NCBI GenBank assembly: GCA_038141665.1
Contig: JAYQIN010000002.1
Coordinates: 121,098-185,097 of the forward strand
DNA from: Thiothrix sp.
GTDB lineage: Bacteria; Pseudomonadota; Gammaproteobacteria; Poriferisulfidales; GCA-002705445
Length of the DNA stretch: 64,000 nt
Direction: 5' to 3'
Below, piece after piece: positions 84 to 9,996 of this stretch (positions are counted from its first letter, which is position 1; each line of letters begins with the position of its first letter). The notes under the pieces were generated by a model. That model worked only from the letters and a program-made list of their open reading frames with translations. It did no database searches and was not told the origin of the DNA. The position numbers were made by a program, and so were the translations under genes.

Positions 84-1846
84 GAACTTATTATTGCAAT
101 GAAATAAACGAAAAAAAAATTGATCAAGAAGTTCAGGTTTGTGGCTGGGTAAATAAGATCAGAGATCATGGTGGTGTCATTTTTATTGACTTAAGAGATA
201 TTAAAGGCTTAGTTCAGATTGTTGTAAACCCAGATGATAAAAAGTTATTTGAACTTGCAGAATCTATAAGAACTGAATTTATAATTTCTGTTAAAGGTAA
301 GCCTAGATTAAGACCAGCTGGTTCTGAAAATTTAAAAATTGATTCTGGAAAAGTTGAAATCGTAAGCTCATCAATTGATTTACTTTCTAAGGCGGAAACT
401 CCACCATTTCAGTTTGACGATGACGTAAATGAAGATAGCAGACTTAAGTACCGAGTTCATGATTTAAAAAGTAGAAAAATGCAGAAAAATTTAATTATAA
501 GAAGTCATGTTGTGAATATAATTAGGAGCTATTTAACAGAATTAGATTTTCTTGAGATTGAAACTCCAATTTTAACAAAAGCAACTCCCGAGGGCGCTAG
601 AGATTACTTAGTGCCGAGCCGAGTTAATCAAGGTCAATTTTATGCTTTACCTCAGTCTCCACAACTATTTAAACAAATGTTAATGATGTCAGGTTATGAA
701 AAATATTATCAAATTGCTAAGTGTTTTAGAGACGAGGATTTAAGAGCTGATAGGCAACCTGAATTTACTCAGTTGGATCTAGAGATTTCCTTCACTAATC
801 AGTCGAAAATTATATCTTTAATTGAAAAATTATTTGCTAGAATTTTCAAAGATATTTTGAAAGTAAATATAAGTTTACCAATTCAGAAAGTTTCTTATAG
901 TGAAGCTATGGAAAGATTCGGGTCAGATAGACCTGACATGAGAATCTCATATGAAATTAAAAACATAAGTGAAATAGTGAAAGATTCTGAATTTAAAGTA
1001 TTCTCAATGCCTGCTACTGAACAAGGTCATAAGGTTAGTGCGATGTGTATACCTTCAGATGCAAAATTATCTCGAAAAGATATTGATACTTATACAGATA
1101 TTGCGGTATCTCTTGGTTCTCAAGGGCTTGCATACATTAAATGTAACGATGTAGATGATATTGAAAACGGTCTGCAGTCCCCAATCATAAAGTTTTTAGA
1201 TAAACAAATAGTTAAAAGAATTCTTGAAAATGTTAATGCTTCTAATGGCGACATAATATTTTTTAGTGCAGGACAAGAAAAACTCGTAAATAATATTCTA
1301 GGCACTCTTAGGTGTAAAATTGCTGAAGATAAAAACCTCCTAAATGATAAGTGGAAATTCTTGTGGGTTACTGATTTTCCAATGTTTGAGCACGATAAGG
1401 AAACAAAGAAATGGAAATGTTTGCACCATCCATTTACAAAGCCTGTTTACAAAAATATTGAGGATATAAACTCAAAGCCAGATACTTTATTATCTGAATC
1501 TTATGATCTTGTGCTTAATGGAACAGAGCTAGGTGGTGGATCCATAAGAATAAATGACATAAATGTCCAAAATGAGGTTTTTAAAGTTTTAGGATTAAGT
1601 GAAAAAGAAATTGATAGCCAATTTGGCTTTTTCGTTAATTCAATGAAATATGGCTGCCCACCACATGGCGGTATTGCATTTGGCTTAGATAGAATAATAA
1701 TGTTGTTAACAAATTCAAGTTCTATAAGAGAAACTATAGCTTTTCCAAAAACTCAAACTGCATCTTGCTCGTTAACAAATGCACCTGCTGATATCGATAA
1801 AGAACAAATGAATGAGCTTGGCTTAAAACATACAGAAAAAAAATAA
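80..1846 (+). CDS. aspS: Aspartate--tRNA ligase
   Basis: MRTYYC start, RDHGGVIFIDLRD OB-fold, TPEGARDYLVPSR, FRDEDLRADRQPEFTQLD (motif 2), PPHGGIAFGLDR (motif 3). Confidence 0.99.
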   Translation: MRTYYCNEINEKKIDQEVQVCGWVNKIRDHGGVIFIDLRDIKGLVQIVVNPDDKKLFELAESIRTEFIISVKGKPRLRPAGSENLKIDSGKVEIVSSSIDLLSKAETPPFQFDDDVNEDSRLKYRVHDLKSRKMQKNLIIRSHVVNIIRSYLTELDFLEIETPILTKATPEGARDYLVPSRVNQGQFYALPQSPQLFKQMLMMSGYEKYYQIAKCFRDEDLRADRQPEFTQLDLEISFTNQSKIISLIEKLFARIFKDILKVNISLPIQKVSYSEAMERFGSDRPDMRISYEIKNISEIVKDSEFKVFSMPATEQGHKVSAMCIPSDAKLSRKDIDTYTDIAVSLGSQGLAYIKCNDVDDIENGLQSPIIKFLDKQIVKRILENVNASNGDIIFFSAGQEKLVNNILGTLRCKIAEDKNLLNDKWKFLWVTDFPMFEHDKETKKWKCLHHPFTKPVYKNIEDINSKPDTLLSESYDLVLNGTELGGGSIRINDINVQNEVFKVLGLSEKEIDSQFGFFVNSMKYGCPPHGGIAFGLDRIIMLLTNSSSIRETIAFPKTQTASCSLTNAPADIDKEQMNELGLKHTEKK

Positions 1847-1847
1847 A

Positions 1848-2267
1848 ATGAAAAAAATCCCAATTTCAGTTTTAGTAATAATATATACAAAAAATAAAGA
1901 TGTCTTGTTATTAAAAAAAAATAATGACAAAGATATGTGGCAATCAGTTACAGGAAGTTTAAATGAAAATGAAAAACCTATTGATGCTGCAAAACGAGAG
2001 GTTTTTGAAGAAACAGGCCTAAAATCTAGCAATATATTTGATTGTAACAGGAAAAATGTTTTTGAAATTTATGAGATGTGGAGACATAAATATGAGGATG
2101 GAGTGACGCATAATACTGAACATGTTTTTCTCCTAGAGCTTGAAAGTAAAGTTGATATAGCATTAGATAAAAGCGAACATTTAAAATATGAATGGGTTTC
2201 AAGAGTCAAAGCTGCTGAAAAAGTTTTTTCTCATACAAACAGGCAAGCTATATTTGAATTAATATAA
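1848..2267 (+). CDS. nudB: Dihydroneopterin triphosphate diphosphatase (Nudix)
   Basis: KIPISVLVIIY, WQSVTGS, Nudix box AKREVFEETG, HNTEHVF; canonical aspS-nudB-yebC order. Confidence 0.92.
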   Translation: MKKIPISVLVIIYTKNKDVLLLKKNNDKDMWQSVTGSLNENEKPIDAAKREVFEETGLKSSNIFDCNRKNVFEIYEMWRHKYEDGVTHNTEHVFLLELESKVDIALDKSEHLKYEWVSRVKAAEKVFSHTNRQAIFELI

Positions 2268-2291
2268 AATTTATTTAATAGAAGAGGTAAT

Positions 2292-3023
2292 ATGGCAGGA
2301 CATAGTAAGTGGGCTAACATACAGCATAGAAAAAAAAGGCAAGACAATAAGAGAGGAAAGTTATTCACAAAACTCATCAAAGAGATTACTGTTGCAGCAA
2401 GAGAAGGAGGAGGTGATGCTGATTCGAATCCCAGACTGCGATTAGCATTAGATAAAGCATTTTCAGGAAATATGAATAAAGAAACTGTCGAAAAAGCTAT
2501 TAATAGAGGTACAGGTAATCTTGAAGGTGTAAGTTATGAGGAACTAACATACGAAGGTTATAGTTCGTCCGGTGTAGCTATTATTGTTGAATGCGTAACA
2601 GATAATAAAAACAGAACTGTTGCAGAAGTAAGACATGTATTTTCTAGGTTTGCGGGAAATTTAGGAAGTTCAGGCTCAGTGTCATACTTATTTAAAAAAA
2701 AGGGGGTCATATCCTACGAAGATACAAACAAGGCCGAACAAATTATTGATCTTGCAATAGAACATAATGCTGAGGATATTCTTCAAGAAGATAATTATGT
2801 TGAAATTCATACAGATAAGTCCGATTATTTGAATATTGCTAAAGTTCTAAAAGATAACGATTTTATTTTTGACAATGCCGAGCTTGAAATGCATGCAGAT
2901 ACTAAGGTTGATCTAACAGGAGATGATGCTGATTCATTCATTAAATTTATGGATGCAATTGAAGAACTTGACGATGTGCAAAATGTTTATACTAATGCTG
3001 AATACGAGCAAAAATTAAGTTAA
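2292..3023 (+). CDS. yebC: YebC/PmpR family protein
   Basis: MAGHSKWANIQHRK, YEGY, TDNKNRT, ELDDVQNVY. Confidence 0.98.
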   Translation: MAGHSKWANIQHRKKRQDNKRGKLFTKLIKEITVAAREGGGDADSNPRLRLALDKAFSGNMNKETVEKAINRGTGNLEGVSYEELTYEGYSSSGVAIIVECVTDNKNRTVAEVRHVFSRFAGNLGSSGSVSYLFKKKGVISYEDTNKAEQIIDLAIEHNAEDILQEDNYVEIHTDKSDYLNIAKVLKDNDFIFDNAELEMHADTKVDLTGDDADSFIKFMDAIEELDDVQNVYTNAEYEQKLS

Positions 3024-3069
3024 AGTAGATATTTAAATTTAAATAATTTTATAAGCTGGAGATTTTATA

Positions 3070-3384
3070 ATGTCAAAAATGCAAAGAGATAAAGGTAAGC
3101 GTTTTGAAAGAGAGGTTGTGAATACTCTAAAAGAGTCTGGCTTTTACGATGCAAAAAGAATACCACTATCAGGGTTGCAAGAGGGTTTTAAAGGTGATGT
3201 TTTAATTAAAAGAACTGAATCATCGAAAGAGTTACTAGGAGAATGCAAAAGTAGAGCTGGTGGTTTTAAATTAATATATGATGCCAAAGAGCAAGATGGC
3301 GCAGATATTTTATTTATAAAACAGGATAGGAAACCTGTGTTAGTGGTTATGTCATTAGATGATTATATAAAAGGCGAATATTAA
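3070..3384 (+). CDS. Hjc-like (archaeal/phage-type) Holliday junction resolvase, PD-(D/E)XK fold
   Basis: QRDKGKRFEREV..L...GF..AKRIPLSG....GDV....GECK matches the Hjc signature (KGxxxERE, RxxxSG, D, ExK); good RBS (GGAG); occupies the ruvCAB position. Confidence 0.8.
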   Translation: MSKMQRDKGKRFEREVVNTLKESGFYDAKRIPLSGLQEGFKGDVLIKRTESSKELLGECKSRAGGFKLIYDAKEQDGADILFIKQDRKPVLVVMSLDDYIKGEY

Positions 3385-3394
3385 CATAAAAAAA

Positions 3395-3808
3395 ATGTTT
3401 TCAAATGAAATCGACATTAGGGTTTATTATGAAGATACTGATTCAGGCGGAATTGTATATTATGCAAATTATTTTAAATTTACCGAAAGATGTCGAACCG
3501 AATTTTTAAGAGATTTAGGAATTTCACAAAGCGAAATACATAGAGACCATGGAATTAGGTTTATTGTACATAGTGTAACAATGGATTATATAAAGCCAGC
3601 TTTTCTTGATGACCATTTAATAGTTAAAACATCTATAGAAAAAATAAAAAGTGCATCAATTGAATTTTTTCAAAAAATTTATAAAAAAACTGATAACGGA
3701 AATATTGATATAATCAGATCAAAGTGTAAAATTGTTGCTATAAACAATGATTCGAAAGTTAAACCAATTCCAAAAATGATTTCAAATAAAATTATGGAGG
3801 CTCAATGA
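3395..3808 (+). CDS. ybgC: Tol-Pal-associated acyl-CoA thioesterase
   Basis: RVYYEDTDSGGIVYYANYFKFTERCRTEFL; directly upstream of tolQ. Confidence 0.95.
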   Translation: MFSNEIDIRVYYEDTDSGGIVYYANYFKFTERCRTEFLRDLGISQSEIHRDHGIRFIVHSVTMDYIKPAFLDDHLIVKTSIEKIKSASIEFFQKIYKKTDNGNIDIIRSKCKIVAINNDSKVKPIPKMISNKIMEAQ

Positions 3809-4506
3809 ATGGTCTTTTGCATTTAGCACTTAACGCAAGTTTTTTGGTTCAGTTAGTCATGATTATTTTAATAGGCTTATCAATTTGGAGCTGGGTAATA
3901 ATTTTTGTGAAAAAAAAAGAGCTAAAAAATATTTTAAACAGTACAAATAAATTTAGCCAAAAATTTTGGTCAGGCATTCATATGCAAAAATACTATATGC
4001 AAATAAAAGACAAAAGAAATAAAAGCTCAATAGAACAAATTTTTTATGTAGGATGGAATAGATATGAAATTCTTCATGGTGATGAAAAAGAGATTACTCC
4101 AGAATCGATTCCTCAAACTTCATTAAGAGCAATGCAGGTTGCAATTGCAACAGAATACGAGGCTTTAGAGTCTGATTTACAAACTCTCGCCACTATTGCT
4201 TCTGTAAGTCCATATATTGGTTTGCTAGGAACAGTTTGGGGCATAATGAATTCTTTTCAATCTCTTAGTCAAACTTCCCAGACAACTATTGCTTTGGTTG
4301 CACCAGGCATTTCTGAGGCTTTAATAGCAACAGCATTAGGCTTAATAGCCGCAATACCTGCTTTAATTGCTTATAACAAATTTAATAGGGATATATCTAA
4401 AATAATTTTAAGATATGAAAATTTTTCAGAAGAGCTTACTGAGCTTCTTCAAAGAACACATATTCCTGAGAAAAATGATGAAAATGACACATCAAAATTA
4501 ATATAA
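3805..4506 (+). CDS. tolQ: TolQ
   Basis: LATIASVSPYIGLLGTVWGIM, VAPGISEALIATALGL. Confidence 0.96.
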   Translation: MNGLLHLALNASFLVQLVMIILIGLSIWSWVIIFVKKKELKNILNSTNKFSQKFWSGIHMQKYYMQIKDKRNKSSIEQIFYVGWNRYEILHGDEKEITPESIPQTSLRAMQVAIATEYEALESDLQTLATIASVSPYIGLLGTVWGIMNSFQSLSQTSQTTIALVAPGISEALIATALGLIAAIPALIAYNKFNRDISKIILRYENFSEELTELLQRTHIPEKNDENDTSKLI

Positions 4507-4512
4507 GATTTG

Positions 4513-4941
4513 ATGAAATATAGAGACAAAAAAAAGTTGCTAGCAGAAATAAACATTGTCCCATACATAGATGTGATGCTAGTTCTGCTTTTGGTGTTTA
4601 TGATAACAACACCATTGCTTTACCAAGGTTTAGATGTAGATCTTCCAACTACTGAGGCTAATGAAGTTGATATAAGTAAATTTGAAGAACCGCTAATAGT
4701 AGAAGTAAACTCGAAAGGTATTATAAGAGTCATACAAGAAGATAATTTTAATGAGCAAGTAGTTGAAGAGGATTTAGCAAATACAATAATATCAATTTAT
4801 AAAAATAAAAAGATAGACAAAGTGTATGTTAAAGGAGATAAAACAATAGCATATGAAAAAATAATTAAAATAATATCTATTTTAAACAAAGGTGGCGTTG
4901 AAAATATTGGTTTGATTACTTTGCCGGTAAATGAAAAATAA
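4513..4941 (+). CDS. tolR: TolR
   Basis: AEINIVPYIDVMLVLLLVFMIT, VKGDK. Confidence 0.95.
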   Translation: MKYRDKKKLLAEINIVPYIDVMLVLLLVFMITTPLLYQGLDVDLPTTEANEVDISKFEEPLIVEVNSKGIIRVIQEDNFNEQVVEEDLANTIISIYKNKKIDKVYVKGDKTIAYEKIIKIISILNKGGVENIGLITLPVNEK

Positions 4942-5761
4942 TAGTAAAAAAAAATTAGCAATTTTTGTAAAAGTATTTTTAATGCACTTATTGATATTAT
5001 TACTTATCGATATAAATTTTTCGAAAATTCTTGGTTTTAGTGGAAAAAATATTGAAATAAAAGATTCTGCGAAATTTGTAAATCTTAAAAGTATTAGTTT
5101 AGAAGAAATTGAAAAAAATAGAGAAAAAATTAAGCAAAAAAAGAAGAGACTGGAAGATTTAAAAAGAAAAAAAAGACTAGCCGAAGAAAAAAAGAAAAAG
5201 TTAGCTGAAGAAAAAAAGAAAAAGTTAGCCGAAGAAAAAAAGAAAAAGTTAGCTGAAGAAAAAAAGAAAAAGTTAGCCGAAGAAAAAAAGAAAAAGCTGG
5301 CTGAAGAAAAACAGAACAAAAAGATTGAAGAAGAAAAAAGAAAATCTCAATTAGAAAAGCTAAAAAATGATGAAAAGCAAGAGCTTGAAAATTATGAAAT
5401 TTTAAAATTAGAAAAAGAGCTGTTAGAGTTAGAAAAAATTGAGTTATTAATTAAACAGAAAAATATTAGAAATGCCCAGCTGTCTGATGCCGAAGAAAGA
5501 TATATTTTAACAATTAAGTCTAAAATAGAAAATAATTGGCTCATTCCACATAATACAAAACATGATAAGATTTGCACTGTAATTGTTAATCAGCTTCCAA
5601 GCGGAAAAGTAACAAATGTTAAAATACATGGTTGTAAGGGTGATAACATATACCTTGATTCATTAGTTAACGCTGTATGGAAATCAAGCCCTTTACCAAT
5701 AGCCCCTGATATAGAAGTTTTTCAGGATATAATAGTTCTACAATTTGAGGAACCAAATTAG
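4931..5761 (+). CDS. tolA: TolA
   Basis: N-terminal TM with His, Lys/Glu/Ala-rich repeat stalk, C-terminal TonB/TolA domain (IENNW..P, SPLP); lies between tolR and tolB. Confidence 0.9.
   Translation: MKNNSKKKLAIFVKVFLMHLLILLLIDINFSKILGFSGKNIEIKDSAKFVNLKSISLEEIEKNREKIKQKKKRLEDLKRKKRLAEEKKKKLAEEKKKKLAEEKKKKLAEEKKKKLAEEKKKKLAEEKQNKKIEEEKRKSQLEKLKNDEKQELENYEILKLEKELLELEKIELLIKQKNIRNAQLSDAEERYILTIKSKIENNWLIPHNTKHDKICTVIVNQLPSGKVTNVKIHGCKGDNIYLDSLVNAVWKSSPLPIAPDIEVFQDIIVLQFEEPN
5177..5311 (+). repeat. 24-bp tandem repeat in tolA encoding (LAEEKKKK)x5 plus a partial copy
   Basis: ttagc(c/t)gaagaaaaaaagaaaaag repeated, Ala codon alternating GCC/GCT. Confidence 0.95.
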
Positions 5762-7036
5762 ATGAAATATTTTATTTTTGCAGCAATTTTACAGTTAATA
5801 TTAAATTCAAATTTGTACGCAGAACTTACTATAAAAATTGATAGAGCTAAAGTAGGCGCGTTGCCAATAATGATAAGCTTTAATAGCGATTCGAAAAATT
5901 TTTCTTCAAACATATTTCAAGAAATAGTTAAAAATGATCTTTATAGCAGTGGTTTTTTTAATGTTTTGAATTCTTCGAATGTTAAAAATAATATTTCAAA
6001 AAAAAGTACCCAATATGCTTTATGGACCCTTGCAGGGACAAATTACTTTCTTATAGGAAATATTTATCAAGACAATGGCATTGATTATATTAGATTTGAC
6101 CTTCATGACGTTATAAAGAAAAATATAGTTGCTTCATATAAAATAAATTTAACTAAAAATTCAAATATTAGAAAAGTTTCTCATACAATTAGCAATGTTG
6201 TTTTTGAGAAGATAACAGGAATTAAGGGAATATTTGATACCAAGATAGCCTATATCAGCACAGAAAAAGTTAATAAAAGAAAAATATATAAATTACATGT
6301 AGCAGATATTGATGGACACAATTCCGTTGCTATATACAAATCTTCAAAACAATTAATGTCTCCTACATGGTCACCAAAAAATGACAAAATAGCTTATGTC
6401 TCATTTGAAAACAACAGGCCTGAAATTTTTGTTCAGTCATTATCAACTGGTGATAGAGAGAAACTTCTTTCAGGAAAGTACTCGTCAAGTGCTCCAGCAT
6501 GGTCACCTGATGAAAAATATATGGCATATACATTATCTGTGAATGGTAATTTAGAAATTTTTATTTATAATTTTAAAACTAATACAAGCAAAAGAATCAC
6601 CAATAGTATTGGCATCGATACTGAAGCTGAATGGCATCCTAATAGTAAAGAAATCTTTTTTACCTCAGATAGAAGCGGTAGACCTCATATTTACAAACAA
6701 TCTATCAATAAAAATAAAGCAAAAAGAGTAACTTTTGATGGTTCTTACAACGCCGATGCAAATGTCTCATCTGACGGAAAATACTTATCTTTAGTACATA
6801 ATGCTGGAAATGGCCATAAAATTGCTATTTTTTCTCTAGAAGACCGTTATCTTAGGGTTATATCCAACGGAAGACTAGATGAAGCTCCAAGTTTTGCTCC
6901 GAATAATAAGATGATTCTGTTTGCTTCAAAAAAAATTCACAAAGGTATTCTTGTTGCGACAAGCAATGATGGTAGAATAAGACAAGAAATTGAACTTAAA
7001 GGCGAAAATGTTAGAGAGCCAATTTGGTCACATTAA
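5762..7036 (+). CDS. tolB: TolB
   Basis: Signal peptide, EKITGIKGIFDTKIAY, WD40-like PTWSP/PAWSPD repeats, FTSDRSGRP. Confidence 0.96.
   Translation: MKYFIFAAILQLILNSNLYAELTIKIDRAKVGALPIMISFNSDSKNFSSNIFQEIVKNDLYSSGFFNVLNSSNVKNNISKKSTQYALWTLAGTNYFLIGNIYQDNGIDYIRFDLHDVIKKNIVASYKINLTKNSNIRKVSHTISNVVFEKITGIKGIFDTKIAYISTEKVNKRKIYKLHVADIDGHNSVAIYKSSKQLMSPTWSPKNDKIAYVSFENNRPEIFVQSLSTGDREKLLSGKYSSSAPAWSPDEKYMAYTLSVNGNLEIFIYNFKTNTSKRITNSIGIDTEAEWHPNSKEIFFTSDRSGRPHIYKQSINKNKAKRVTFDGSYNADANVSSDGKYLSLVHNAGNGHKIAIFSLEDRYLRVISNGRLDEAPSFAPNNKMILFASKKIHKGILVATSNDGRIRQEIELKGENVREPIWSH

Positions 7037-9919: not shown

Positions 9920-9996
<77 letters not shown>

Follow-up and report, generated by a model that had tools for sequence, protein, structure and literature searches.

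In the stretch of Thiothrix sp. DNA analysed here (64,000 nucleotides of contig JAYQIN010000002.1; the window), the operon position that ruvC, ruvA and ruvB hold in related bacteria is occupied by one small open reading frame (ORF) encoding 104 amino acids (aa). The reading we favour, with a probability of about 0.7, is that a domesticated, phage-derived, Hjc-like nuclease of the PD-(D/E)xK type took over Holliday junction resolution, working with RecG, after deletion of ruvC-ruvA-ruvB. For bacteria, RuvABC counts as the standard machinery of junction processing.

A single small gene in the ruvCAB slot

Five relatives from three other families (L026-L030) share the gene order aspS-nudB-yebC, a gap of about 2.1-2.4 kilobases (kb), then (ybgC)-tolQRAB. 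The coordinates of ruvC, ruvA and ruvB fall inside this gap between yebC and ybgC/tolQ in 5/5 relatives examined, and the position of the ORF is therefore that of the ruvCAB slot. The features that define the slot in the window are as follows.

3070..3384, forward strand: PDDEXK_15 / Hjc-like nuclease gene, 104 aa, an ORF that begins at ATG; E13, D43, E58 and K60 are the proposed catalytic residues
3058..3061, forward strand: GGAG ribosome-binding site, 8 nucleotides (nt) before the ATG of the 104-aa ORF, by direct sequence reading
3024..3069, forward strand: adenine- and thymine-rich spacer of 46 nt from yebC to the ORF, with no room for any ruv remnant
2292..3023, forward strand: yebC (TACO1/YebC family), which precedes ruvC in relatives; PF01709 and PF20772, synteny
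3395..3808, forward strand: ybgC-type acyl-CoA thioesterase, the first gene past the slot; 4HBT_2 and 4HBT, synteny
3805..7036, forward strand: tolQ, tolR, tolA and tolB, the context fixing the identity of the slot; Pfam MotA_ExbB, ExbD, TonB_2 and TolB_N/PD40, tblastn synteny in relatives

A first-pass annotation, made from the letters of positions 3024-3394 (the ORF with its 46-nt spacer and the 10-nt spacer that separates it from ybgC), had described a conserved operon in which a small ORF with Hjc signatures and a good ribosome-binding site fills the place of ruvCAB, with no integrase or phage gene nearby. The description holds. The Pfam assignments of the neighbours and the ruvCAB genes of five relatives in the same gap support the order; the GGAG lies where a ribosome-binding site is expected; the translation contains all the named motifs (KGKRFERE at residues 8-15, RIPLSG at 30-35, GD at 42-43 and ECK at 58-60); and housekeeping genes stand on both sides of the ORF, with no integrase or other phage gene adjoining it. 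No terminator-like site was found in 1700-4000.

Relatives were sampled as 61 genomes, of which 17 belong to the window's family (f1), one stands alone as f4 and 43 are others. The same arrangement was seen in 11 other family genomes (10 in the genus, 1 in genus g3; protein identity 68-97%), a recurrence by which it exceeds chance. Homologues of the ORF occur in 12/61 relatives, all of them f1: 11/15 in the genus, the window genome included, and 1/1 in genus g3. Every assembled f1 locus runs from yebC into the ORF; where an assembled locus is available, the three genera of the family agree on this position. Within the genus, ybgC-tolQ comes next after the ORF at nine of ten loci. In the exception, G007 (L008 1890-3305), a convergent SelO/YdiU-like gene follows the ORF and reaches the contig end, which might be explained by rearrangement, by insertion or by a chimeric contig. 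The orthologue of genus g3 (L016 1501-1812, G016) has two ambiguous codons, giving X at residues 55 and 59; cluster P0008 supplies the sequence without ambiguity.

Distribution of ruvABC and other recombination genes

Among the findings that would tell against it, the first-pass annotation had itself named intact ruvABC elsewhere in the genome with an ORF that is only sporadic among relatives. Neither pattern appeared: ruvA, ruvB and ruvC were not found in the window genome or the 16 other family genomes, and the ORF is lineage-wide, with homologues in 12/17 f1 genomes. Whole-genome profile search of the window genome (1.11 megabases (Mb), 2 contigs, 90.5% complete) returned no match to RuvC or RuvA and, for RuvB_N, four weak matches only, of at most 27.8 bits and in long AAA+ frames. 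Across the relatives, ruvC was found in 0/17 genomes of f1, 0/1 of f4 and 43/43 of the remainder; ruvA, and ruvB over its cut-off, were found in the same 43/61 genomes, and likewise in 0/17 of f1. Four f1 genomes that are 97-98% complete, in 3-8 contigs, still yielded no ruvA, ruvB or ruvC match, and ruvX, a positive control of similar size, was found in 17/17. The f4 genome (G019) has no ruvABC or PF24608 match and also no yebC or aspS; its locus is probably unassembled, hence uninformative. Two ruv-bearing relatives show extra partial matches beside intact ruv genes, to ruvA/ruvB in G031 (C1:744164-745234) and to ruvC/ruvA in G047 (C1:983586-983830), which suggests small tandem duplications or remnants within the ruv operon.

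Other recombination genes were surveyed in the same genomes. recA was found in the window genome at 469 bits. A search for recG and radA had also been proposed; the former turned up and the latter did not. recG exceeds its cut-off in 16/17 f1 genomes, the miss being a 73%-complete genome with an Mfd-like match only, and radA/sms was found in 0/17. With ruvAB and radA not found and recG kept, no recognised branch-migration helicase other than RecG is left. Known alternative resolvases were not detected either: RusA (PF05866) had no match in the window genome, and RecU (PF03838) had none in the 17 f1 genomes, the 104-aa ORF included.

Protein family and proposed catalytic residues

The 104-aa protein matches Pfam family PF24608 (PDDEXK_15) with 34.3 bits against a cut-off of 27 (E 2.7e-8 for the whole protein), residues 5-98 aligning to profile positions 2-115 of 164, and the window genome holds one copy of this family. 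It also matches PHROG 244, labelled 'Holliday junction resolvase', at E 2.2e-15; the 'RusA-like' label of that group is a library label and not a fold assignment. It is not a member of the RuvC family (TIGR00228 / PF02075), its fold matches being PD-(D/E)xK proteins.

Among proteins of solved structure, the closest in sequence is Hjc_15-6, from Thermus phage Tth15-6 (7bgs; HMMER E 7.9e-5). This enzyme cleaves junctions, and its proposed catalytic residues are E10, D40, E53 and K55 (motif E10-SD40-EVK55; PMC8805305). The HMMER alignment to 7bgs, which spans residues 4-47 only, pairs E13 with E10 and D43 with D40. An alignment to ST1444 Hjc takes in the E, D and E-x-K positions, that is, the whole tetrad, and weaker alignments to Sulfolobus Hjc-type proteins include the E-x-K motif. 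An exhaustive profile-free search gave 830 cluster representatives at E <= 0.001; in a 76-sequence alignment of these, K8, G9, E13, D43, E58 and K60 are invariant, and the tetrad E13/D43/E58/K60 is likewise constant in a 12-sequence alignment.

By sequence, the protein is best described as phage 'Hjc-like' and not as archaeal Hjc, because it belongs to PF24608 and its scores fall short of the curated Hjc thresholds. Of the original label, 'archaeal/phage-type Hjc', the phage-type half is thus upheld by PF24608 membership and the archaeal half, below the PF01870 and NF040854 thresholds, is not.

Predicted fold and dimer

An AlphaFold2 model built from the 76-sequence alignment has a mean predicted local distance difference test (pLDDT) value of 86.5 and a predicted template modelling (pTM) score of 0.79, with the element order helix, three strands, helix, two strands, helix. 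When this model was compared with the PDB by Foldseek, ranks 1-10 were all archaeal Hjc chains (best E 4.5e-5; query template modelling (TM) score, TMq, 0.50-0.62). The top structural matches came from A. fulgidus, P. furiosus and Sulfolobus, followed by further entries for Hjc/Hje and by 7bgs; lower ranks include tRNA-splicing endonucleases, SwaI (a restriction enzyme) and Cas4. The model thus places the protein in the Hjc-type alpha/beta nuclease fold, and together with the intact Hjc-type tetrad this prediction agrees with the PD-(D/E)XK fold first proposed from motifs.

A homodimer is also predicted. Its score is 0.82 against 0.01 for the best control, with contacts agreeing by at least 98% between runs and pLDDT of at least 85. 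The score mark applied was reached by 20/30 proteins solved as pairs and by 1/23 solved as single chains; solved Hjc dimers exist, so the homodimer score may merely reflect likeness to them. The modelled interface is very large, with 192-197 contacts over residues 55-99, and in it strand 80-83 pairs across the chains with strand 57-60. These features of the model hint at a strand-exchanged dimer in an unusually short family member.

Phage relatives and origin

The PF24608 family is phage-borne, and in phages it is placed among recombination and replication genes. Twelve phage records carry relatives of the 104-aa protein, among them two Roseobacter phages with relatives 52% identical and several Geobacillus-group phages whose relatives carry the annotation 'Holliday junction resolvase'. 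On scanning, viral contigs yielded 93 relatives, the best 44-53% identical. Many relatives on viral contigs exceed the PF24608 gathering threshold. On one viral contig the genes around the relative encode a Sak4-like annealase, a primase-helicase and exonucleases. In a ruvC-positive gammaproteobacterium with a genome of 3.6 Mb, a family member lies inside a prophage-like replication module.

A 111-aa protein with an E...D...ECK-like pattern (L056 5940-6275, G238; also G397, L052) scores 22.7 and 21.4 bits, below the PF24608 cut-off. Both genomes are ruvC-positive and 1.1 Mb in size, and the surroundings of the gene are neither phage nor ruv.

Selection, composition and expression

The ORF is under strong purifying selection. 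Among 45 pairs of 10 genus orthologues, the median nonsynonymous divergence (dN) is 0.063, the median synonymous divergence (dS) 1.6 (7 pairs saturated) and the median dN/dS 0.044. Within the genus the 104-aa protein is 87-97% identical, compared with 61-74% for ybgC, 70-88% for nudB and 71-92% for yebC. The guanine-cytosine (GC) content of the ORF is 33.0%, and 21.9% at third codon positions (GC3), similar to the neighbouring genes.

RNA-library contigs over 2292-4506, compared for four runs, give partial cover only. One contig of 151 nt (X2) spans 2988-3138 across the yebC-ORF junction with zero differences, the rest of the ORF being uncovered. It offers a weak hint that the ORF is co-transcribed with yebC; the coverage as a whole indicates neither expression nor silence of the ORF.

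A second order with the same arrangement

In a sample of 401 Gammaproteobacteria, ruvC was found in 386, some of them with genomes of only 0.3-0.4 Mb, and not found in 15. PF24608 was found in 8 of the 400 genomes scored for it. Four genomes are both PF24608-positive and ruvC-negative (the window's, G092, G301 and G446); all are of 0.9-1.3 Mb and at least 90% complete, and the remaining four carriers possess ruvC. The other genomes without a ruvC match are for the most part incomplete or badly fragmented assemblies, and one is a 0.4-Mb genome. The miss in G184, which is 99% complete, is a contig break, ruvA beginning its contig.

Neither ruvA nor ruvB was found in G092, G301 or G446. At 3/3 loci examined, these genomes carry a PF24608 gene of 135-141 aa between yebC and ybgC/tolQ:

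L053 6078-6488: slot gene of G301
L054 5866-6291: slot gene of G446
L055 6393-6800: slot gene of G092

In G092, ybgC is missing between the PF24608 gene and tolQ. All three genomes belong to one order, and they consequently count as one further lineage and not as three. In that second order (four families), the PF24608 gene is present in 57/61 genomes, including 37/37 high-quality ones, and ruvC in 0/61. The second-order proteins exceed the PF24608 gathering threshold and form a subfamily that is abundant in marine metagenomes (744 clusters). They are 28% identical to the window protein, with a profile-profile probability of 97% and the tetrad aligned. By pairwise score, the window-family protein lies much closer to relatives from viruses and metagenomes (P0031, 88.8 bits) than to its second-order counterparts (about 15 bits).

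The two lineages may reflect two independent phage captures, or a single capture after which the small gene passed by itself into the corresponding slot of another lineage; on either reading the slot was filled in this way more than once. A tree of five flanking proteins (AspS, YebC, TolQ, TolR, TolB; 20 taxa, 1561 columns) joins f1 with the ruvCAB-bearing families f2 and f3, at 100 in the Shimodaira-Hasegawa-like approximate likelihood ratio test (SH-aLRT), and sets the second order apart from f1+f2+f3. This was a quick tree used in place of a careful search that had not finished, and 16/20 of its rows are of odd composition. If correct, its topology makes the two hosts non-sisters, so that the flanks were not co-transferred. 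The gene tree itself (109 rows) is a polytomy with 58/106 inner branches open. Constraining the two slot-resident groups into one clade gave a log-likelihood 23.5 above that of the free quick tree and a p-value of 0.694 in the approximately unbiased test (p-AU), so that a common origin of the slot gene is not rejected.

We would give roughly even odds to the wider proposition that two non-sister lineages of small-genome marine gammaproteobacteria each dropped RuvABC and put a phage-derived Hjc-like nuclease in the ruvCAB position, leaving RecA, RecG and a nuclease of about 100-140 aa as a minimal junction system. That one slot was used repeatedly would mean either that selection favoured expression in a yebC-linked setting or that the small gene by itself moved between lineages into the same operon.

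Proposed mechanism and alternative explanations

In the mechanism that we propose, RecA would form the junction and RecG would move it. A homodimer of the 104-aa protein would then bind the four-way junction, with Mg2+ held by E13, D43 and E58 and the transition state stabilised by K60, and paired nicks made by the dimer would be sealed by ligase. The fold and the dimer enter this scheme as predictions. Junction cleavage, the partnership with RecG and co-transcription with yebC are what we infer from family, locus and gene content. It had been suggested at the outset that the resolvase, and possibly the RuvAB motor as well, had been displaced by the ORF. Displacement of the resolvase is retained here as the probable course of events; displacement of the motor is not, since a nuclease of 104 aa cannot be a motor and RecG, the likely motor, is retained.

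Several observations weigh against this interpretation. Firstly, the window genome is 90.5% complete, so that the absence of ruvABC there alone is no proof, and the wider argument from absence rests on 17 related, non-independent genomes. Secondly, 5/17 family genomes are without an ORF match; three of these are also without a yebC match, one has yebC ending a contig, and the fifth is G013. Thirdly, the likeness to Hjc is incomplete. The archaeal Hjc family PF01870 is matched at 19.3 bits against a gathering cut-off of 21.1 (E 1.1e-3, residues 11-65 only) and the Hjc equivalog NF040854 at 14.5 bits against a curated cut-off of 70; at 104 aa the protein is shorter than the matched Hjc chains (116-130 residues); and the TM-scores are moderate (0.44-0.62), with root-mean-square deviations of 4.6-8.8 Å. 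Fourthly, PD-(D/E)xK nucleases serve many other roles. Lastly, the expression evidence is one 151-nt contig from an RNA library that possibly contains DNA.

Some of these points would also fit a PD-(D/E)xK nuclease doing another job, on other branched or damaged DNA, in a restriction- or defence-like role, or on RNA. On that view its adjacency to yebC is a coincidence, and the lineage, having no dedicated resolvase, would dissolve or avoid junctions by means of RecG and topoisomerases. The shortfall at both curated Hjc thresholds fits such an enzyme, as do the tRNA-splicing endonucleases, SwaI and Cas4 lower in the Foldseek list, and the Pfam name of PF24608 goes no further than 'putative PDDEXK endonuclease'. 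However, an incidental gene would have had to settle in the ruvCAB slot of two non-sister host groups in neither of which ruvC was found. Moreover, the phage relatives lie in recombination and replication modules and not in defence islands (no search with PADLOC defence models was made), and the closest solved relative, Hjc_15-6, cleaves junctions. We therefore consider another role unlikely, while giving it appreciable weight.

A further explanation, that the ORF is left over from a prophage or other mobile element, selfish or decaying and without a function for the host, draws on the mostly phage-borne character of its family. We rejected it as highly improbable: the median dN/dS of 0.044, with synonymous sites near saturation, is that of a constrained gene; the position is the same across three genera, with no phage neighbours and with host-like GC and GC3; and the ORF is more conserved than the adjacent ybgC, nudB and yebC. 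The proposal that ruvABC is present but hidden by incomplete assembly, the ORF being an extra gene, can appeal to the 90.5% completeness of the window genome and to the many relatives that are fragmented metagenome assemblies, but it is barely credible and was likewise rejected, given that the slot is contiguous with the ORF as its only gene in the window and 9 further family loci, that all three genes score 0/17 (four genomes at 97-98% completeness included) against 17/17 for ruvX, and that a comparable ruvC miss, in the 99%-complete G184, could be traced to a contig break at ruvA.

Comparison with known systems

Hjc_15-6 (PDB 7BGS/7BNX; PMC8805305) shares with the ORF the E...D...E-x-K tetrad, a phage-type character and the archaeal-like PD-(D/E)xK fold. 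It differs in length (163 aa versus 104 aa), in motif (SD/EVK, compared with GD/ECK in the ORF), possibly in being a tetramer, and in being encoded by the phage of a thermophile, whereas the ORF is fixed in a bacterial chromosome. Archaeal Hjc has the same tetrad, supplies the top fold matches and is known from solved dimers; for the ORF product a homodimer is predicted. ORF residues R14 and R30 correspond to R10 and R25 of P. furiosus Hjc (PMC10956419) by position and not by alignment. The ORF is nevertheless shorter, lies below both Hjc thresholds, resides in a bacterial host and has no C-terminal tail such as that bearing the PCNA-binding motif of Sulfolobus Hjc (PMC10956419).

Two further precedents come from bacteria. 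RecU of Firmicutes and Mollicutes is a resolvase of the PD-(D/E)xK superfamily that displaced RuvC non-orthologously (PMC3403352; PMC10956419). RecU organisms, however, keep RuvAB and have recU away from ruvAB (PMC3403352), whereas in the window's family ruvA and ruvB were not found and the ORF sits in the old operon position. RusA is a small, partnerless, prophage-borne resolvase that stands in for RuvABC given RecG (PMC10956419; PMC3403352); the scheme proposed for the ORF follows this logic, and recG is retained. It is of another fold and family, and the E. coli case is a laboratory suppressor, while the arrangement of the ORF is fixed in natural lineages. According to the same review, RusA suppresses E. 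coli ruv defects when RecG is present, and E. coli without RuvC regains repair when given a Methanobacterium Hjc (PMC10956419). As for PF24608, the family is described as phage-borne and without assigned function; the window copy differs in being chromosomal and of host-like composition.

Neighbouring genes

The operon context extends beyond the genes listed above to the following features.

80-1846: aspS, upstream of yebC (Pfam)
1848-2267: NUDIX gene in the nudB position, upstream of yebC (Pfam)
9920-9996: tRNA-Lys, downstream of queC

Beyond tolB lie an OmpA-family pal, cpoB with tetratricopeptide repeats (TPR), a queE of the radical S-adenosylmethionine (SAM) type and queC, all with Pfam support. 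The tolA product was identified by its TonB_2 C-terminal domain (Pfam). The linker of this TolA-like protein (4931-5761) holds six tandem AEEKKKKL-type units, and a long ORF on the opposite strand, at 4882-5319, is the same repeat read in reverse.

Novelty and significance

Our assignment of the protein to its family is not new, some pipelines already labelling relatives 'Holliday junction resolvase'. What appears to be new is the lineage-wide, slot-specific replacement of RuvABC. We found no literature on this displacement or on PDDEXK_15 in the sources within reach, which excluded subscription papers and supplements such as the Ruv/RecU/YebC distribution tables of PMC3403352. The presence of ruvC in 386/401 class-sample genomes, 0.3-0.4 Mb genomes among them, makes it unusual for entire free-living lineages to have lost all three genes.

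An operon link between yebC and ruvC is documented, and a functional tie of yebC to junction resolution has been proposed, in PMC3403352. The present locus bears on that link: the linkage to yebC was kept though the family of the resolvase would have changed. If the 104-aa protein is indeed a resolvase, the arrangement would be a natural counterpart of the laboratory complementations with RusA/RecG and with Hjc, an example of a phage gene turned core host gene, and a source of a candidate junction-cleaving enzyme of very small size. When genomes of these lineages are annotated, junction resolution should not be entered as absent.

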